Virus record (IMG/VR): IMGVR_UViG_3300036715_000213 | Location: 11,997 to 75,996 of that record | Length of the DNA stretch: 64,000 nucleotides | Direction: 5' to 3' (one strand) | Origin: a virus | Part shown: one piece after another, positions 441 to 13,415 of the stretch | Layout of the letters: the number at the start of each line of letters is the position of its first letter | How positions within the stretch are numbered: the stretch's first letter is position 1 | The notes under the pieces: generated by a model | Seen by the model: the letters and a program-made list of their open reading frames with translations, nothing else | Told to the model about the DNA's origin: nothing | Database searches by the model: none | Translations under genes and position numbers: made by a program

Positions 441-833
441 CTATTGTAATGTTTGATGTGTCTCAAATGTAAAGACATCAGTTGATGGTTCTTCTAAAGT
501 TTGATTCATAGCTGATGGAATCTCCAGCTTATTCACTAATTTGACATACATCCGATGAGCATCAGGATGCATTGGTGACAATACCATAATAGACGTAGTC
601 GGTATAAAGAAGAGACGAGTCTTAGAGAATGGCATCCAGGACTGACTATTTATCTCATTACGCATTCCATTTTCATCCATAATAGGAATAGTTCGAACTA
701 GAACTGGACTTTCAACAATGATTCCATGCTCACGTTCGTCAACAAGAGTCACCATCAATTCCTCACCTGTGGTAAGTTTCATCGTATAAAGCAGTTGATT
801 TGCTTGAGGAACTGATTCTAAGTTTTCGGTCAT
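441..833 (-). CDS. Conserved T4-like hypothetical between uvsW and gp55 (possible Sm-like fold)
   Basis: KLTTGEELM...SWMPFS pattern; ATG at 833 overlaps the uvsW stop (ATGA). Confidence 0.7.
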   Translation of the reverse strand: MTENLESVPQANQLLYTMKLTTGEELMVTLVDEREHGIIVESPVLVRTIPIMDENGMRNEINSQSWMPFSKTRLFFIPTTSIMVLSPMHPDAHRMYVKLVNKLEIPSAMNQTLEEPSTDVFTFETHQTLQ

Positions 834-2176
834 GTTATTGTTAGTTTTCTGAGTGTCCATGAAAAACTTTCCTTCTCATAGATGCTGATACGATCTTCTA
901 AGTGATTTTGTGTTGTATTCTTGAACGACTTCCAGCTAAGGTCATCAGCGATGTCGTACAATACGCACTTCTCCTTTCCCTTGTTCAAACGTAGTCCACG
1001 GCCGATAGATTGACGAATGCGAATTGTTGATTTGCTTGGAATAGCAAAAATTATATTCCTGATGCTCGGTATGTTGACACCAGTAGACATTAGCGCGCTA
1101 TTAGCAACAACAATTGCATCCGTCTCCGTACTTAGTATGTTACGAATACGTTCGCGTTCTTCAACGTCCACGCCACCGTGGATAAAGTAAACTTTCCGGT
1201 CAGTAATTTCCCGTATCATTTTCTCAATAATAGCGCCGTGACGATCCACGAAGTTGAACAGCACTAGAGTGTTACCCTTAACAACTGATGCTAGTTTTGC
1301 AATGAAACGATTCCGTGGTTCGTATGCAACCAAGAAAGCAATCTCCTCTTGGTATGTCATTCCCTTATAGGCTTTCCGTATGTGCTCTGGGTACTGTAAC
1401 ACTGTACAATTAATGTCCAATTGTGACACCTGTCCGTTGTCCATTAGTTCCTTAGTGGAAATAACTTTGTAGATTGGACCCATTAGTCCTTGTAAAACAA
1501 GTGCGTTAATCTTTGCATCGTCAATCGTACCCGTTGTTCCAATACGATACTTGGTAAGGATAAAACGTTCCATAACACTCGAAGCAATACCTGATTTTTG
1601 TGTGTGACAATTTGAAACCATTACACCATTAGCAAAATAATTATGATTATCTTTCACATGTAAATTATATGTATCTTCGTCATTGTTTATCAATTGTATT
1701 TCACTAATACCAGACCACTCTACAAAATCTTCATACCAATAGCCAAGCTCGCGACGCGTTTTACCTAACATAGTTTTTGGTATTTTATTTTTACTTGCGT
1801 TAATAGATTGACAAGTTATAATTTTTTGTGAATTTTTGCACCATTGTGCTTCACGTCCAATTAGACTTGTAAAAACTCCCGAAGGAGTATGGTATAATCC
1901 CTTACATTGTATCGGGTACCATTCTTGCGATCCCCAATATTGCTTATCTACAATGTTTATAGTTTTTGTTTCATTAGAGTATCTATATTTTACTGTTAAT
2001 TTTTCTTTTCTGTTAGTAGTAAGATCACTTCGATTATAAAAATCTTCCTTGGATACTGTTTCAACTAAGCCGCTAGCGTTTCTAGCTCTAACTTTATTTT
2101 TTTGTGCTATACTCATATTCAATCTCATTTTAGATGAGTCATAATTTAACCATCTAATTCTATTGTTCTTTACCAT
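830..2176 (-). CDS. uvsW: UvsW helicase C-terminal part, preceded by an endonuclease-like remnant and the C-intein
   Basis: After VSN: CHTQK, IGTTGT (motif III), STGVNIPSI, QSIGRGLR (motif VI); intein block F/G YNLHVKDNHNYFANGVMVSN. Confidence 0.9.
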   Translation of the reverse strand: MVKNNRIRWLNYDSSKMRLNMSIAQKNKVRARNASGLVETVSKEDFYNRSDLTTNRKEKLTVKYRYSNETKTINIVDKQYWGSQEWYPIQCKGLYHTPSGVFTSLIGREAQWCKNSQKIITCQSINASKNKIPKTMLGKTRRELGYWYEDFVEWSGISEIQLINNDEDTYNLHVKDNHNYFANGVMVSNCHTQKSGIASSVMERFILTKYRIGTTGTIDDAKINALVLQGLMGPIYKVISTKELMDNGQVSQLDINCTVLQYPEHIRKAYKGMTYQEEIAFLVAYEPRNRFIAKLASVVKGNTLVLFNFVDRHGAIIEKMIREITDRKVYFIHGGVDVEERERIRNILSTETDAIVVANSALMSTGVNIPSIRNIIFAIPSKSTIRIRQSIGRGLRLNKGKEKCVLYDIADDLSWKSFKNTTQNHLEDRISIYEKESFSWTLRKLTIT

Positions 2177-2464
2177 GCTTTATGATATACGAATTTTTGA
2201 ATTAATAGTTAATTCGTCTACTCTTACCCATCCACTAGCAGTCATAATTTTATGATTTCCAGTTACTTCAAGAAATTTTCCATTTTTTAATTTGATTTTA
2301 TATTTCTGTTCTGTAGAAATATTTTTGTGAAGTTTTATGACTGGTTTGTACTCAACATTTAATGTAGTTTCATTAATTGTTTTTACCATATCTCCGACAT
2401 TTATTTCTTTAATTTTCTTGAAAATATTATTTTCCAATTCAATTAAAGAATCACCAGCCAAACA
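1610..2464 (-). mobile_element. Intein in the UvsW Walker B motif (DE|CH), split by an in-frame TAA at 2180-2182
   Basis: Starts CLAGDSLI after WDE; block B TGNH; ends VSN followed by Cys+1; visibly more AT-rich than the flanks. Confidence 0.9.
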
Positions 2465-3190
2465 CTCATCCCAGATACCAACTTCAGTACGCTTTACGAT
2501 TTCGTCGAACTTCTTTGGGTCGTTTTTCATCATAGATGCTAGCGATTGCCATGTGCTAATTACGACTGACTTTTCAAAGACACGTTCCTTGCCACTATAC
2601 AGAGTGCTACAATGTTCTTCAGCATTCCATCCATTTTCACTGCTGTAATCTTCAAAGTCGCTAAACAATTGTTCCACTAGCATTGTAGTGGGTACAACAA
2701 TCATTAGCTTACGTCCATGCTCAATGTGCCAGCGAATGATACACATAATAATCATTGACTTACCGGAAGCTGTTGGGCTTAGCAATAGCTGGCGCTCATT
2801 GGAGATTGCTTGCCAGACAGCTTCATATTGGTACTCGCGAATGTCTAACTTGTCACCGCGTCCATGTAGATCTAAACTGTCAACAAAATCCTTTGCCTTC
2901 TCATAAGTTACTTCCAGAGCATTGGAGTTCTTTAAAGATTTGTCGATGAAAAGCTCGTAGTCACGGTTCTTGGCAAACTTGATTATCTCATGGATAAGAC
3001 CTTTGTACAGTTGCTTGTTCCGCATGTTGAACAAACGAATCTTCCCGTCCCACATTTTGTTCTTGTAGGAAGGCATGAATCGATATCCCGGAGCCATGAA
3101 CGTAAAATACTCGCTGATTTCTTGTTCAATGCCGTAGTCATCCGTCTCAATACGGATGTAGGTTTCGTTACATGGGATAACTTTTATCAT
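2180..3190 (-). CDS. uvsW: UvsW helicase N-terminal part fused to a 94-aa N-intein
   Basis: PGYRFMPSYKNKMWDGKIRLF, REYQ, SPTASGKS (Walker A), STWQS, WDE|C. Confidence 0.92.
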   Translation of the reverse strand: MIKVIPCNETYIRIETDDYGIEQEISEYFTFMAPGYRFMPSYKNKMWDGKIRLFNMRNKQLYKGLIHEIIKFAKNRDYELFIDKSLKNSNALEVTYEKAKDFVDSLDLHGRGDKLDIREYQYEAVWQAISNERQLLLSPTASGKSMIIMCIIRWHIEHGRKLMIVVPTTMLVEQLFSDFEDYSSENGWNAEEHCSTLYSGKERVFEKSVVISTWQSLASMMKNDPKKFDEIVKRTEVGIWDECLAGDSLIELENNIFKKIKEINVGDMVKTINETTLNVEYKPVIKLHKNISTEQKYKIKLKNGKFLEVTGNHKIMTASGWVRVDELTINSKIRIS

Positions 3191-3621
3191 GCGCCTGCTC
3201 TAAATTTAGTCCAATCGATAGCTGCCCGAATTGACCAGTTACGGTTTTTAATTTCACTCAACACACTCTCAAGAAAATAGATTGTAGTTTTCATGTAAGA
3301 TTCGCGAGCCATGAACTTCTGATACTCAGCATCCGCATCAATCAGTTCCGGAATGTCGCTCTTGAGTGTCCGGTATTGCCATTGTGTCCAACCACGATCA
3401 GTTAGTTCTTCCTTGGTCATTTCGCCGCGAAAATACTTTCCCTTGACTGCCTTTAGTTCAGCAATCTCATGAGTAATTTTTGTGTGCTTTAGTTTGGCTG
3501 TAATCAACTCGTCCAGATACTTTGCGTGAAGCATTGGCGTGGATATTGCTGCGTTACCCAAGTCATCTTTGATGACGCAGTCGTTAGCCCATGATAGTTT
3601 CAGTTCATCAAGTGTCGCCAT
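3187..3621 (-). CDS. uvsY: Recombination mediator UvsY
   Basis: PMLHAKYL and IKNRNWSIRAAIDWTKFRAG; directly upstream of uvsW. Confidence 0.9.
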   Translation of the reverse strand: MATLDELKLSWANDCVIKDDLGNAAISTPMLHAKYLDELITAKLKHTKITHEIAELKAVKGKYFRGEMTKEELTDRGWTQWQYRTLKSDIPELIDADAEYQKFMARESYMKTTIYFLESVLSEIKNRNWSIRAAIDWTKFRAGA

Positions 3622-3645: not shown

Positions 3646-4179
3646 TTATGATACTGAATAATAGGAGTAGGAAATAGTTAGAGTTGCAACAAGGTACTGA
3701 ACATCGCTATTGTTAGCTTGGAATGTTAGTCCAGTTAGCGATACTGGGAACGCATCTGTAAAGGTAAAACGTTTCAGCGGCTTGTTATCGCTATCTAAGA
3801 TAGTCAGTGAACAATCAGAAACAGCTTTGCTATTTTCACTGTAACCTTGTGCGTTGCGTTCTGCAGAAATCAATTCACGATACCATTTGTGTCCTTCGGG
3901 AAATCCAAGTCCAATCATCCAATCGTGAATAGCAAGATAGTTTGCCATCTTTTCGTCCACTAGGAACTGGATAGTCAGGTCATCAAAGTCAAGTGCTTCG
4001 CCGGGCATGTTAAAGTCATGTACACTGTTTGCCATGACTGCTTTACCTAAAGTAATACCCGGCAATGGAGCCTCTTGGACAAAGTAAGTTAGCTCCGGGT
4101 ATTTCTGAATCGAGAACAGAAACCCATTTGGATTTAAAGCACTGATATTATCAGGAACTGGGCATGTAAGAATTGGAAT
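3646..4179 (-). CDS. gp3: Tail terminator/completion protein gp3, probable ATT start
   Basis: Frame extends 38 codons past the tracked TTG through LNPNGFLFSIQKYPELTYF; FLVDEKMANYLAIHDW and FTDAFPVSL motifs; AAGGAG 7 nt before ATT. Confidence 0.8.
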   Translation of the reverse strand: MPILTCPVPDNISALNPNGFLFSIQKYPELTYFVQEAPLPGITLGKAVMANSVHDFNMPGEALDFDDLTIQFLVDEKMANYLAIHDWMIGLGFPEGHKWYRELISAERNAQGYSENSKAVSDCSLTILDSDNKPLKRFTFTDAFPVSLTGLTFQANNSDVQYLVATLTISYSYYSVS

Positions 4180-4240
4180 TTTAGTTCTCCTTTAATTTAC
4201 AATTATCAGTAAGGTTTGTTTCTAACATACGCATACAATA

Positions 4241-4774
4241 TTAGACGTAGTCCTTATTAATTGTTTCTGACTTGAAATTTGCTAGGTTAATAGACAACGA
4301 AATATTAGCGGAATTTAGTTTGTCTTTGTAATAGTGTGCTTCTTCAACACTCATATTGTATCTTAGTGTAACATGCGGTCTGTACTCTGGAAAAGAGTGT
4401 TGCATACCCATAGACTTTAGGTATTCATGCATTCTGTTTAGAAGTGGATTCTGTAGTTCCATGACAATACAACTCTTAGCTTCGTCACGAACACCTTCTT
4501 CCGGAAGCGAATCGAAGCATTCAAAATGTACGACTTCAGCTTTTATCTCTCTTGGAAACATAGAAGTGATATTAGCCATTGCTTTGTCTGGATTAACACT
4601 ACTATCAGTACTGTACATGAGGGTACAGTGATAATCGCCATTTGGTGGCGCTTTTCCAGACACTGGTTCTTGCATGCCTATTCTAGCGAAAAACGCGCCA
4701 AGATCCTCCGAATCTATGCAGACATAGTTGCCTTTTCCAGTAGTTTCTATCAAATAATCCTTAAAAGTCTTCAT
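4241..4774 (-). CDS. acb1: 2H phosphoesterase, T4 gp57B/Acb1-like anti-CBASS nuclease
   Basis: Two HxT motifs (YHCTLMYS, YRPHVTLRY) and GMQHSFPEY, laid out as in T4 57B; alternative start at 4810. Confidence 0.8.
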   Translation of the reverse strand: MKTFKDYLIETTGKGNYVCIDSEDLGAFFARIGMQEPVSGKAPPNGDYHCTLMYSTDSSVNPDKAMANITSMFPREIKAEVVHFECFDSLPEEGVRDEAKSCIVMELQNPLLNRMHEYLKSMGMQHSFPEYRPHVTLRYNMSVEEAHYYKDKLNSANISLSINLANFKSETINKDYV

Positions 4775-4775
4775 G

Positions 4776-4825
4776 ATTTTATCCAGTATATTTTTAATGG
4801 TTTTGTACATAATTTTATCCAGTAT
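4776..4825. repeat. 14-bp direct repeat preceding both in-frame ATGs of the Acb1-like gene
   Basis: ATTTTATCCAGTAT at 4776-4789 and 4812-4825, period 36. Confidence 0.8.
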
Positions 4826-4834
4826 TTAGCCATG

Positions 4835-4863
4835 AAAAAGCCCAGCGGTTAAACTGGGCTTTT
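4835..4863 (-). terminator. Intrinsic terminator after gp23 (bidirectional geometry)
   Basis: AAAAAGCCCAG-cggttaaa-CTGGGCTTTT. Confidence 0.85.
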
Positions 4864-4865
4864 GA

Positions 4866-4883
4866 AACTTAGTTAACTAAGTT
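4866..4883. repeat. Perfect 18-bp palindrome
   Basis: AACTTAGTTAACTAAGTT equals its reverse complement. Confidence 0.85.
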
Positions 4884-4892
4884 AGTGGAAAC

Positions 4893-6161
4893 TTACATCA
4901 AATTCGCGACGGTCACCTTACGAAAATAAATGTTCTGACCAGATGCCAGCGATGTGAATGGGTTAGCTACGAAACCGTAACGTGTACGGAACGCAATCTT
5001 TGGCTGGAACGTAGCTGGGTCAACAGCACGGTACAGTTGCAATGGAACGTATGGGCAGTAGAATGCACCAGCGTCAAAGCTGCTTGTACCCTTGTAACCA
5101 ACCATCAGGAACTGAGAAGCAGTTTGGTTAGCAGCGAACGGATCCACATAAACCTTGTACTTACCATTCAACACACCAGCGAAAGTGCTGGAAGCTTCAT
5201 CAACGTTTAACTTAGTCGACAGTGCTGGAGCGTAGTCCAGAACACCAGCCATGCTCAGTGCGCTTGCAACGTCTGCAGAGCAAACGATGAAGTTACCACG
5301 ACCACGACGTGTTTGTTGATAAATCGCATTAGCTTCACGCTCGATTTGGAACAACAGACCCTTGAACTTTTCAACAGACCAACGACCGTTAGAGTCAACG
5401 TCCAAGTCGAAAGTACCAGCAGTAGCTGTACCAACTTGAGCACCTGGCTTAGCAGCACTGTAAACAGTACGGATAACTTCACGGTTGATTTCGTTCAAGA
5501 TTTCTTGAGACAAAATGTTGCTCAGTTCAGCTTCAGCATCCAGACCGTGTACAGCCTTCAAGTCTTGAGCCAATTCAACGCTGTACTCTGCCTTCAACGC
5601 ACGGCTTTGGGCTGTAACGGAAGTCTTTTCAATGCTGAATGCCATTTCACCGAAGTTAGTTGGCGATGCACCGGAACCTGTTTGAGTTTCAGCTGTTGCT
5701 GTTGAGTAAGCTGTACCAGTTGTAGCACCAGGACCTGCTGGGCCCATTGTACCGTCAGCGTGTGTACCTGTACCAGAGAAGTCAGTGTCTGCTTCGTTGA
5801 ACAACGCTTCAGTACCACCTTGTGTACCATACTTGCTCTTCATAGCAAAGATCAGGCCAGTTGGCTGAGTCATTGGCTGAACACCACACATGTCATATGC
5901 AATCATTGCTGGCATTGCACGACGTACCAAGCTAATCAACACTGGGTCGAACTTAGCTACACCACCTGTATCAGGCATTGCACCAGCGGAGTTGGTTGGA
6001 GCAGCTTCGAACAGTGCTTGACGTTCGTCACGGTTAGCAATTTCTTGGTTCTCCAGCAAAACTGCTGTAACTTCACGGCGGTGTTGCTCAGTAATAGGAG
6101 CTGCGCCTTCGGCATCCAGAACTGGAGCCCACTTTTTAACTAGATCTGCACGAGATGTCAT
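4893..6161 (-). CDS. gp23: Major capsid protein
   Basis: KKWAPVLD, LLENQE, GVQPMTQPTGLIFA, RALKAEYSVELAQDLKAVHGLDAE, FYCPYVPL; start moved to MTSRAD. Confidence 0.98.
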   Translation of the reverse strand: MTSRADLVKKWAPVLDAEGAAPITEQHRREVTAVLLENQEIANRDERQALFEAAPTNSAGAMPDTGGVAKFDPVLISLVRRAMPAMIAYDMCGVQPMTQPTGLIFAMKSKYGTQGGTEALFNEADTDFSGTGTHADGTMGPAGPGATTGTAYSTATAETQTGSGASPTNFGEMAFSIEKTSVTAQSRALKAEYSVELAQDLKAVHGLDAEAELSNILSQEILNEINREVIRTVYSAAKPGAQVGTATAGTFDLDVDSNGRWSVEKFKGLLFQIEREANAIYQQTRRGRGNFIVCSADVASALSMAGVLDYAPALSTKLNVDEASSTFAGVLNGKYKVYVDPFAANQTASQFLMVGYKGTSSFDAGAFYCPYVPLQLYRAVDPATFQPKIAFRTRYGFVANPFTSLASGQNIYFRKVTVANLM

Positions 6162-11246: not shown

Positions 11247-13415
11247 TTATGCGTTTGCTTTACCCGCAATTTCAGTAAAAGCTACACCAGTACGAGTAGC
11301 GATGAAATTCAACTGAATAAAGTTGATCGAACGGTTTGGCTTTAAGTAAATATCAGCTACAAAACGGTTTGTATCAATAACTTCACCGGTGTTGTTTGAT
11401 TCGTCGCAAACAACCAAGAAGTCTGTCAAACCACGACGTCCACGTACATCACGCAAAAACGGTGTTACCATACCTACGAACTGTGCACGTGTAAATCCAT
11501 CGTTAAACTCAAACAATTGGAACTTGGATGCAGTAGCGATTGCCTTTTCCAGCACAATAAACAAACGGCGTACATTAATACGATCGAATGCACTTGGCTT
11601 AGCCAAGGCTGTCTTGTCACCGTACAGAACAACACCTTGTCCTGGGAATGCTACAACAGGGTTAATACCGCTCTTGTACAGGTTATCACGGTCAGTACGC
11701 TTTGGAGAGAAAGCCAACTTAACAGTGTTCTTAATCTGACCGCGGTTGAAACCAGCTGGAGAGAACCAAGGATCATCAGTGTTGTCAGTACGAGCGCACA
11801 AACCAGCAACATCACCATTTAATGGAACCCAACGGTATTGGTCATTATACTTGTCGTATTGGTATTTGTAACCGCTATCAATAACACCGTATGAACTAGA
11901 TGTAATCAGTGCGCGATATGCAAGGATTGCAGTAGTAATGCTGCTATCGTTACCAATCAGTGGAGCTCCTGATGTAATGTTCTGTGGAGACACAAAAGCG
12001 ATACAGTCCTTACGAACTTCTGCAATGTTCTGGATAACATAGTTAGCCAAAGTTGCATCTGCTGGACCAACAGCAATCAGGTTAACGTCATACTGCTCGT
12101 CATTGTTGAACAAGTCAAATGCCAGCATCTTTTGTGCGTTAGTTGATGTGAAGTGGTCAACACCAGCAACCAAATCGTTCGTAACTGCGCCAGCAGCCTT
12201 GAAACCTGCGGCTGTAACTGCTACGGCTGCATTAGCTGCCAAAGTAACCGCAGTTGCGCTTGTGAATGTCGCCACAGTACCAATCAAGGCACCTGTAAGA
12301 TTGTACAGCTTACGACCTACATCAGATGATGCGAATGCTGTACCAACACCAGTAATAGTTGCTGCACTAGTTGTGCAAGTAATTGTACCAGTTTGTGCGG
12401 TAATCAGCGACTTGTATGTACCAGCAACAAGGTCAGTACTCCAACTCAATTCGCCAACTACAGCAGTCAATTGAACTGTATCATCAGTCCACAAAACATA
12501 CTTGGAATTGTTGTTAATCACGTTTTTGTAGTAAGCCGATGTACCGTCTTCCTTACGTGTATTAGCCGCCTTGGAAATATATGGGTAAATTTCCAGAATA
12601 CCACCAGCGGTACCAGTCCAGCGACCAGCTTGGTCAATAACTACAACGTGCATTTCGTCGTTAGATGCGCCAACTTGTGCTGCGTCCGTAGATGTACCAG
12701 GAGCACCGCTAAACAGATCTTTGTAGGCCCATGTAGCGTAAGAACTTGCGTCTGCCATCGAAACACGTAGCGAGTTACCAAGAGTACCTGGATACTTTGC
12801 AGCCCACTCACCAATAACGCCTTGACCACTGCTATAATTATTCGCATAATCAGAGTCGTTGTTAATCTTAATACCGCCTTGAGCGGTTACAACAGTACCG
12901 ATAACGGCAGGAGTTGTGTTTGTACCAGAAACAGTAACTACTGGAACTGTATCGTAACCAGTACCAGCGTTAGTGATAACGATACCAGTAATAATACCGC
13001 TAGCAACAGTAGCAGTAGCAGTAGCTTGAATACCACCGGTAGTTGTTGGGGCTGGAATATTAACTGTTACAGTACCAACGTAAACTGTACCACCGGAAGT
13101 TACTGGAATAGATGTGATAGAACCAGTAGTGTTGGAAACTGCATTACGCTGGTTAGTAGTATCGCTACGAACAACCAACAGGTTATTAGAATAAGCTAGA
13201 AAGTTTGCTGCATTAATCCATCCAGCTGCATTAGATGCGTTTGGCTTACCAAAACGGCTTGCGAGTGTATTTTCCGACTCAACTGTGGTAACGTCCATAA
13301 CTGGACCCCATGCTGCATCAATAACGGCGGCACCCACCGATGTTGAAACTGCTGGGATTACGTTGGTTAGGTCCTTTTCAGATACTGTAACTGATGGAGA
13401 AAGTGCGATTGCCAT
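11247..13415 (-). CDS. gp18: Contractile tail sheath protein
   Basis: SPSVTVSEKD, YPGTLGN, PWFSPAG, AFDRINVRRLF. Confidence 0.97.
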   Translation of the reverse strand: MAIALSPSVTVSEKDLTNVIPAVSTSVGAAVIDAAWGPVMDVTTVESENTLASRFGKPNASNAAGWINAANFLAYSNNLLVVRSDTTNQRNAVSNTTGSITSIPVTSGGTVYVGTVTVNIPAPTTTGGIQATATATVASGIITGIVITNAGTGYDTVPVVTVSGTNTTPAVIGTVVTAQGGIKINNDSDYANNYSSGQGVIGEWAAKYPGTLGNSLRVSMADASSYATWAYKDLFSGAPGTSTDAAQVGASNDEMHVVVIDQAGRWTGTAGGILEIYPYISKAANTRKEDGTSAYYKNVINNNSKYVLWTDDTVQLTAVVGELSWSTDLVAGTYKSLITAQTGTITCTTSAATITGVGTAFASSDVGRKLYNLTGALIGTVATFTSATAVTLAANAAVAVTAAGFKAAGAVTNDLVAGVDHFTSTNAQKMLAFDLFNNDEQYDVNLIAVGPADATLANYVIQNIAEVRKDCIAFVSPQNITSGAPLIGNDSSITTAILAYRALITSSSYGVIDSGYKYQYDKYNDQYRWVPLNGDVAGLCARTDNTDDPWFSPAGFNRGQIKNTVKLAFSPKRTDRDNLYKSGINPVVAFPGQGVVLYGDKTALAKPSAFDRINVRRLFIVLEKAIATASKFQLFEFNDGFTRAQFVGMVTPFLRDVRGRRGLTDFLVVCDESNNTGEVIDTNRFVADIYLKPNRSINFIQLNFIATRTGVAFTEIAGKANA

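Follow-up and report, generated by a model that had tools for sequence, protein, structure and literature searches.

We analyzed the minus-strand uvsW locus of a phage genome fragment from a metagenome assembly (IMG/VR virus record IMGVR_UViG_3300036715_000213; 75,996 bp). Coordinates refer to the window, i.e., the 64,000-nucleotide stretch covering positions 11,997 to 75,996 of this record. The uvsW gene is divided between two open reading frames (ORFs) of 336 amino acids (aa; 3190 to 2180) and 448 aa (2176 to 830). The upstream ORF (N-half) encodes the UvsW N-extein (aa 1 to 242; 2465 to 3190), with the UvsW_N domain and the helicase motifs from motif I to the DE of motif II, and a 94-aa N-intein (2183 to 2464). 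The extein ends in EVGIWDE, and the intein follows directly as CLAGDSL...VTGNHKIMTASGWVRVDELTINSKIRIS, closed by a TAA (2180 to 2182) that lies at the boundary of a foreign insert. The next six nucleotides (2174 to 2179) are a single AGC codon (2179 to 2177) and an ATG (2176 to 2174), which form the stop-restart junction TAA AGC ATG in frame with the N-half. The downstream ORF (C-half) opens with a headless domain derived from a homing endonuclease (aa 2 to 151; 1724 to 2173), recognized by phmmer homology and predicted to fold in an AlphaFold2 (AF2) model. It continues into a C-intein core (aa ~152 to 189; 1610 to 1723; blocks F and G, YNLHVKDNHNYFANGVMVSN) and ends with the UvsW C-extein (aa 190 to 448 plus the stop codon; 830 to 1609), which supplies the Cys+1-His of motif II (DECH), motifs III to VI, and the Helicase_C domain. 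In this ORF, YFANGVMVSN, whose terminal Asn189 is the last residue of intein block G, immediately precedes CHTQKSG. An initial annotation made from the sequence alone had described the locus as WDE plus a 94-aa N-intein and TAA, followed by AGC, ATG, VSN ending at residue 189, and CHTQK; the ORF map and the sequence reproduce this layout exactly.

The exteins together make up a complete UvsW. Matches to PF21241, PF04851, PF00270, and PF00271 and the adjoining uvsY-like gene identify the product. The joined exteins (501 aa) are collinear with intein-free UvsW proteins of 498 to 502 aa, with no gap at DE|CH, in agreement with the earlier proposal that splicing would restore WDECH. Identity to the intein-free proteins is 64 to 75% for the N-extein and 68 to 82% for the C-extein, and the usual DEAH is replaced by DECH. 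In Pfam searches, the N-half matched UvsW_N, ResIII/DEAD, Intein_splicing, and Hint (PF01079; 37.8 bits; cut-off, 29.7), and the C-half matched Helicase_C and the end of Intein_splicing. A 284-aa read-through of the intein region (with X at the stop) matched PF14890 over positions 2 to 153 of 155 (66.8 bits; cut-off, 35.8). The G+C content of the intein and insert is 26 to 31%, versus 40 to 44% for the exteins.

The sequence elements of a class-1 intein are present in the two halves. Cys1 directly follows the N-extein (WDE|CLAGDSL), the block B T-x-x-H motif is found as VTGNHK (aligned to TGNHK of the Npu DnaB mini-intein 4o1r), the N-intein ends in DELTINSKIRIS, and the C-intein has a terminal Asn followed by a Cys+1 extein residue (YNLHVKDNHNYFANGVMVSN|C). 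The DnaB mini-inteins 4o1r and 1mi8 of the PDB align to residues 2 to 93 of the N-intein, and their C-terminal part is matched as well. Cys1, TGNH, the terminal Asn, and Cys+1 are invariant across all of the family members that we inspected, and the C-intein motif was also detected in P0002, P0003, P0036, L001, L004, L005, L009, L010, and L012.

At least ten homologous uvsW inteins located at DE|CH stop within a few residues of the break in the window. They occur in cultured phages (Salmonella phages SEA1, S16, and STP4-a [L001] and Proteus phage PM2 [L002]), in IMG/VR contigs (L004, L005, L009, L010, and L012), and among metagenomic proteins (N-halves P0005 to P0008 and P0010; C-halves P0002 and P0003). 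The search for homologous inteins with the same break, which the initial annotation had proposed as a check, was thus positive: measured from Cys1, the N-fragment is 93 to 99 aa long in 8 of the 10 cases compared (window, 94 aa), the exceptions being P0040, to which the endonuclease is fused, and L005, whose tail runs into the endonuclease gene and brings the length to 112 aa. Because these homologues break at the DE|CH site within a few residues of each other, the alignments indicate that the break did not arise as a chance nonsense mutation in the window lineage alone. A contiguous relative locates the insert. L011 (IMGVR_UViG_3300002220_001052; 3945 to 5858) encodes a 637-aa UvsW with a mini-intein of ~131 aa at the same DE|CH site. 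The N-intein of the window aligns to L011 up to S351, and the C-intein core, which is 56% identical to L011 residues 354 to 385, resumes at about residue 352. Since the L011 mini-intein is continuous across S351/T352, the alignment identifies the segment that starts with the TAA and extends to C-half residue ~155 as an insert placed exactly in the endonuclease-insertion loop. This position agrees with the gene-breaking model, in which the invader supplies the upstream stop (PMC2677866). With its N- and C-parts in separate ORFs, a break shared by homologues, and exteins that make a complete UvsW, the element has the features of a naturally split intein, and the split-intein interpretation of the initial annotation is supported by the class-1 sequence elements, the conserved break, and the loop position in L011.

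In two of the metagenomic N-halves (P0008 and P0010), the protein begins with an intein-like stretch of ~140 aa (...HHN|S) at the Walker-A GK|S position and also ends with the DE|C N-intein, so that uvsW is seemingly fractured at two sites. At the first of these, the intein is perhaps split in an atypical way that leaves its N-fragment very short.

The ~150 codons that follow the ATG at 2176 are open at a G+C content of 31.6%, with no stops in frame and 14 and 23 stops in the other two sense frames. An open frame of this kind was found in 0 of 200,000 shuffles (analytic P, ~1e-6). A phmmer search of 1.84 billion representative proteins with this middle domain returned 18 relatives (E values down to 5.8e-20), and nearly all of the matches correspond to the C-terminal ~130 residues of proteins of 170 to 430 aa, whose chains end 2 to 5 residues past a GKT.RELGYW.E motif. 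The heads of these relatives match homing-endonuclease/HNH families of PHROG (phrog_655, 12434, 10820, and 314), and one has a weak Pfam GIY-YIG match. The window contains the module from about residue 4, without the 110- to 150-aa head and without the usual stop of the module, so that the frame reads into the C-intein. No Pfam or PHROG nuclease match was obtained for C-half aa 1 to 188, and the residues that are invariant or nearly so in the family alignment (A1) are all kept. The AF2 model of the domain has a predicted local distance difference test (pLDDT) score of 80 to 92 over aa 20 to 150; the isolated C-intein tail is disordered, as is expected of a split-intein fragment on its own. An AF2 model of the read-through intein made without an alignment (pLDDT, 31) was not used. 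With the domain model, Foldseek found nothing in the PDB at an E value of ≤0.001, and the best VIA-align wide match had a Z score of 2.5, a negative result with no bearing on function. The phmmer matches show that the middle domain is homologous to the C-terminal module of free-standing HNH/GIY-YIG-like endonucleases. It is presumably DNA binding, because the module occupies the C-terminal position of the endonucleases. The 189-aa C-half described as unusually long in the initial annotation is accordingly composite: the ORF does read through to residue 189, while the C-intein itself accounts for only ~35 aa and the remainder is endonuclease derived.

Megablast of 830 to 3190 and tblastn of the middle domain yielded no match in the phage collection, scans of viral_contigs for close relatives of the middle domain and of the N-intein found none, and no paralogue of the domain was found in the record itself. 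A DNA pattern for the domain/C-intein junction gave chance matches only in viral_contigs and metagenome_contigs, with no second locus left after filtering of the matches listed. Two candidate relationships were discarded: the middle domain and the intervening ORF of phage S16 are unrelated in sequence, and an apparent full-length match to the intein of Vibrio phage 104E43.1 was spurious in its middle part.

The closest parallel to the C-half is P0036, a 562-aa protein from a Logan contig in which a complete HNH-type endonuclease with its head (phrog_655, 3e-24; phrog_12434, 1.5e-13) and this same module are joined, within a single ORF, to the C-intein and then to the C-extein of UvsW. C-half aa 32 to 447 align without a break to P0036 aa 133 to 556 (43% identity; E value, 8e-116), across the junction between the module and the C-intein. 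The fusion therefore predates the split between the two lineages, and the window lineage lost the nuclease head later. P0036 begins as free-standing endonucleases natively do, an indication that its gene start is independent. P0040 (693 aa; Logan) is the mirror image of the window, with the UvsW N-extein and N-intein continuing in frame into a Vsr/TnsA-like endonuclease (PF08722). The sister loci L001, L002, L004, L005, and L009 have a three-gene layout with a separate Vsr/TnsA-like endonuclease gene. In L010 (3770 to 4856; 156 plus 152 aa) and L012 (3817 to 4999; 266 plus 138 aa), the intervening endonuclease gene is broken and the intein halves are intact, a pattern indicative of a homing endonuclease decaying inside a fixed split intein. 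Seven states of one allele are thus represented. The site may be empty or occupied by a contiguous mini-intein; the intein may be fractured with a separate endonuclease gene that is whole (three genes) or decaying; and the endonuclease may be fused to the N-half, to the C-half, or, without its head, to the C-half.

We consider it likely that uvsW in the window is a fractured gene whose halves are joined by a naturally split class-1 intein lying between DE and CH (Ala to Cys in DEAH), and that the two products are trans-spliced, with a C-half that is in part endonuclease derived. We infer trans-splicing because the splicing residues and the exteins are conserved. The uvsY-uvsW(N)-uvsW(C) operon would probably be expressed as one transcript. 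Ribosomes would finish the 336-aa N-half at the TAA and most likely restart one codon farther on, at the ATG at 2176; TAA-n-ATG junctions are common in this phage genome. The C-half would then open with the ~150-aa domain of a homing endonuclease that formerly resided in the endonuclease loop of the intein, and which, having lost its head and stop codon, would continue into a C-intein of ~35 aa and then into the C-extein. A Hint fold would form from this C-intein and the 94-aa N-intein, and Cys1, the block B Thr and His, Asn189, and Cys+1 would carry out trans-splicing. The predicted products are a 501-aa DECH UvsW and an excised complex of the N-intein with the domain-C-intein fragment. We regard the endonuclease-derived domain as most probably a passenger: the C-half takes its start codon from this domain, which forces the frame to remain open. 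The domain may also have kept a role in DNA binding. C-inteins tolerate N-terminal cargo in engineered systems, and the cargo site is that of the nested endonucleases of cis inteins.

Several observations weigh against this reading. Ser188 of block G replaces the usual penultimate His, and position 4 of block F is Asn (YNLHV), whereas most class-1 inteins have Asp there. A penultimate His and an Asp at position 4 of block F are common in class-1 inteins without being universal, and the Asn and Ser departures are found family-wide, with S16-like members having AHN (i.e., a penultimate His). Judged from these residues, the departures lower confidence in fast splicing, not in class-1 membership. 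A Shine-Dalgarno sequence is absent at both ATG 2176 and M136, and gene callers differ, IMG choosing M21 (2114 to 2116; P0045) and another M136 (1769 to 1771; P0001); M1, M21, and M136 are candidate starts of the C-half. Contigs that bridge the stop in three other runs (X1, X2, and X3; sediment and microbial-mat metagenomes, assembled by Logan) are only 2 to 5x deep, so that rare variants could escape notice, and one run is possibly the source sample. X2 represents a distinct strain, with AGC changed to AGA in the spacer (2177), and X2 and X3 together provide three single nucleotide polymorphisms (SNPs) in the C-half (R108H, C122R, and V152A; 1854, 1813, and 1722). All three, which fall in the middle region and the N-terminus of the C-intein, are nonsynonymous; this fits a relaxed constraint on the endonuclease-derived domain, although n is 3. 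Finally, T4 can dispense with uvsW, which would let an inactive allele survive for some time.

Some of these points bear on an alternative start. In this explanation, the C-half is made from Met136 (ATG 1769 to 1771) and carries a 54-aa C-intein (as in P0001), the upstream 135 codons being a relic that is untranslated or uselessly translated. The choice of M136 by one gene caller, the 35- to 44-aa C-inteins of the canonical relatives, and the exclusively nonsynonymous SNPs are in its favor. The openness of the 135 codons at 31.6% G+C (P, ~1e-6) and the complete retention of the family-conserved domain residues are difficult to reconcile with a relic, as is the same in-frame fusion in P0036 (43% identity), which implies inheritance as one ORF. 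Moreover, no Shine-Dalgarno sequence or stop-restart context accompanies M136, and in the absence of the endonuclease stop, the upstream starts must read into the C-intein. We regard a start at Met136 as a real if minor possibility.

A second alternative accepts both halves and denies the peptide bond: the intein halves would serve only to dock the UvsW pieces noncovalently, as in the NrdA of Aeromonas phage Aeh1. A fragmented ribonucleotide reductase was shown to assemble without splicing (Crona et al. 2011; PMC3045599), and the block F Asn and block G Ser of the family are unusual. However, members that have diverged to ~40% identity all retain Cys1, TGNH, the terminal Asn, and Cys+1, an invariance difficult to account for unless splicing is under selection, and L011, the contiguous homologue, can yield a helicase only by splicing in cis. 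The insertion of ~280 aa inside the DExH box would also probably disable ATPase coupling. Noncovalent docking alone is distinctly unlikely on these grounds.

The locus could also represent a nonsense allele of a once-contiguous, endonuclease-bearing, cis-splicing intein, with uvsW a pseudogene or expressed by rare read-through. The ORFs share a frame with a single codon between the stop and the ATG, as if one sense codon had mutated, and uvsW is nonessential in T4. This would require the stop to fall exactly at the insert boundary and family break with an ATG one codon on, by our estimate a ~1-in-1000 coincidence. Both exteins are undecayed, the stop is common to a diverged strain (X2), and the native endonuclease N-terminus of P0036 speaks for a separate gene start. 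No contiguous endonuclease-bearing form was found in a word-index search for longer proteins, which is weak evidence. A nonsense allele is, on balance, quite improbable. The source record is a metagenome assembly, but an error or recoding at 2180 to 2182 is very unlikely, and negligible as an explanation, because the TAA is unchanged in the bridging contigs of all three runs (including the SNP-bearing strain), because TAA ends 28 of the 41 long ORFs in the window, as the initial annotation had noted in describing it as a normal stop, and because the search of the 76-kb record for tRNAs turned up a tRNA-Met and no suppressor.

The inferred organization can be placed beside several known systems. 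The fractured genes described by Dassa et al. 2009 (PMC2677866) contain phage-derived split inteins (e.g., gp41-1, NrdJ-1, and IMPDH-1) whose halves flank a free-standing gene for a GIY-YIG or Vsr-like endonuclease; UvsW is absent from their eight host enzymes. As in those genes, the break in the window is at the endonuclease-insertion loop, the N-intein is ~95 aa long, the operon is on one strand, the N-half stops at the 5' edge of the invader, and the host gene encodes a phage DNA-metabolism enzyme. By these shared features, the window is classified with the phage fractured-gene split inteins. It differs in having two genes rather than three, with no separate endonuclease ORF, whereas its relatives L001, L002, L004, L005, and L009 do have the three-gene layout. 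The endonuclease families also differ, P0036 having an HNH-type head and the sister loci a Vsr-like enzyme. Relative to free-standing HNH/GIY-YIG endonucleases, the window retains the C-terminal recognition module, with its inferred binding role, and lacks the catalytic domain. Like bifunctional cis inteins, it has a DNA-recognition module in the same Hint loop, and reading the TAA as sense would give a 284-aa intein; unlike them, it has a stop-restart at the N-side junction, a module of the free-standing phage type rather than LAGLIDADG, and no catalytic domain.

The cyanobacterial DnaE inteins (Ssp and Npu) have an N-fragment of ~100 aa and a C-fragment core of ~35 aa. Like them, the element in the window is a class-1 intein of naturally split form, with Cys1, Cys+1, and the canonical split site. 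The DnaE halves lie at distant loci without an endonuclease remnant, whereas the halves in the window are adjacent and the C-fragment is longer by ~150 aa. The nrdA-a/mobE/nrdA-b locus of Aeromonas phage Aeh1 is a further case of a phage gene split by a mobile endonuclease whose products must reassemble. Aeh1 NrdA lacks the splicing residues and assembles noncovalently, in contrast to the window, which has C1, TGNH, N189, C+1, and precisely abutting exteins.

The uvsY-like ORF (3187 to 3621, minus strand) overlaps the start of uvsW, the uvsW start and the uvsY stop sharing ATGA. On the other side, a 139-aa ORF (441 to 860, minus strand) begins within the last uvsW codons and has syntenic counterparts between uvsW and gp55 in L005 (1760 to 2221) and L009 (1837 to 2271). 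No terminator was found between the uvsW halves and no T4-type late promoter (TATAAATA) near the locus, where sigma-70-like sites were not above chance. The gene order gp55/small ORF/uvsW/uvsY/.../gp23 is common to the window and L005. The phage that carries the split uvsW is T4-like and environmental, and its major capsid protein shares ~60% identity with those of Methylophilales phage Melnitz, Pelagibacter phage HTVC008M, and cyanophage P-TIM40.

We found no description of a uvsW with a split intein in the searchable literature, as judged partly from titles and abstracts. The uvsW DE|CH intein family is nevertheless present in cultured phages (S16-like phages and PM2). In the records of SEA1 (L001:2811-5775) and PM2, the pieces are annotated as uvsW_1/_2/_3, helicase, "DNA helicase," and "hypothetical protein," with the split intein unflagged; the "hypothetical protein" between the pieces is a Vsr/TnsA-like endonuclease. 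Natural split inteins are working parts of protein-ligation technology, for which each new orthogonal pair is useful, and the 189-aa C-fragment is a natural test of the cargo tolerance of C-inteins. With seven states of one allele, the origin of a split intein and the gain and loss of its endonuclease can be compared within one family. The chief interest, for specialists in inteins and phage mobile elements, is the endonuclease::C-intein fusion and the evolutionary series that surrounds it. A tentative and rather doubtful extension is that this fusion is a selected, split "bifunctional" intein, inherited from an ancestor with a whole HNH endonuclease in its C-fragment, and that the excised complex binds specific DNA. 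If so, the complex could protect the uvsW site of the phage itself against related endonucleases, act as a repressor of the operon, or direct a nuclease provided in trans, and the element would be a living intermediate, in either direction, between free-standing endonuclease genes and the nested domains of inteins.

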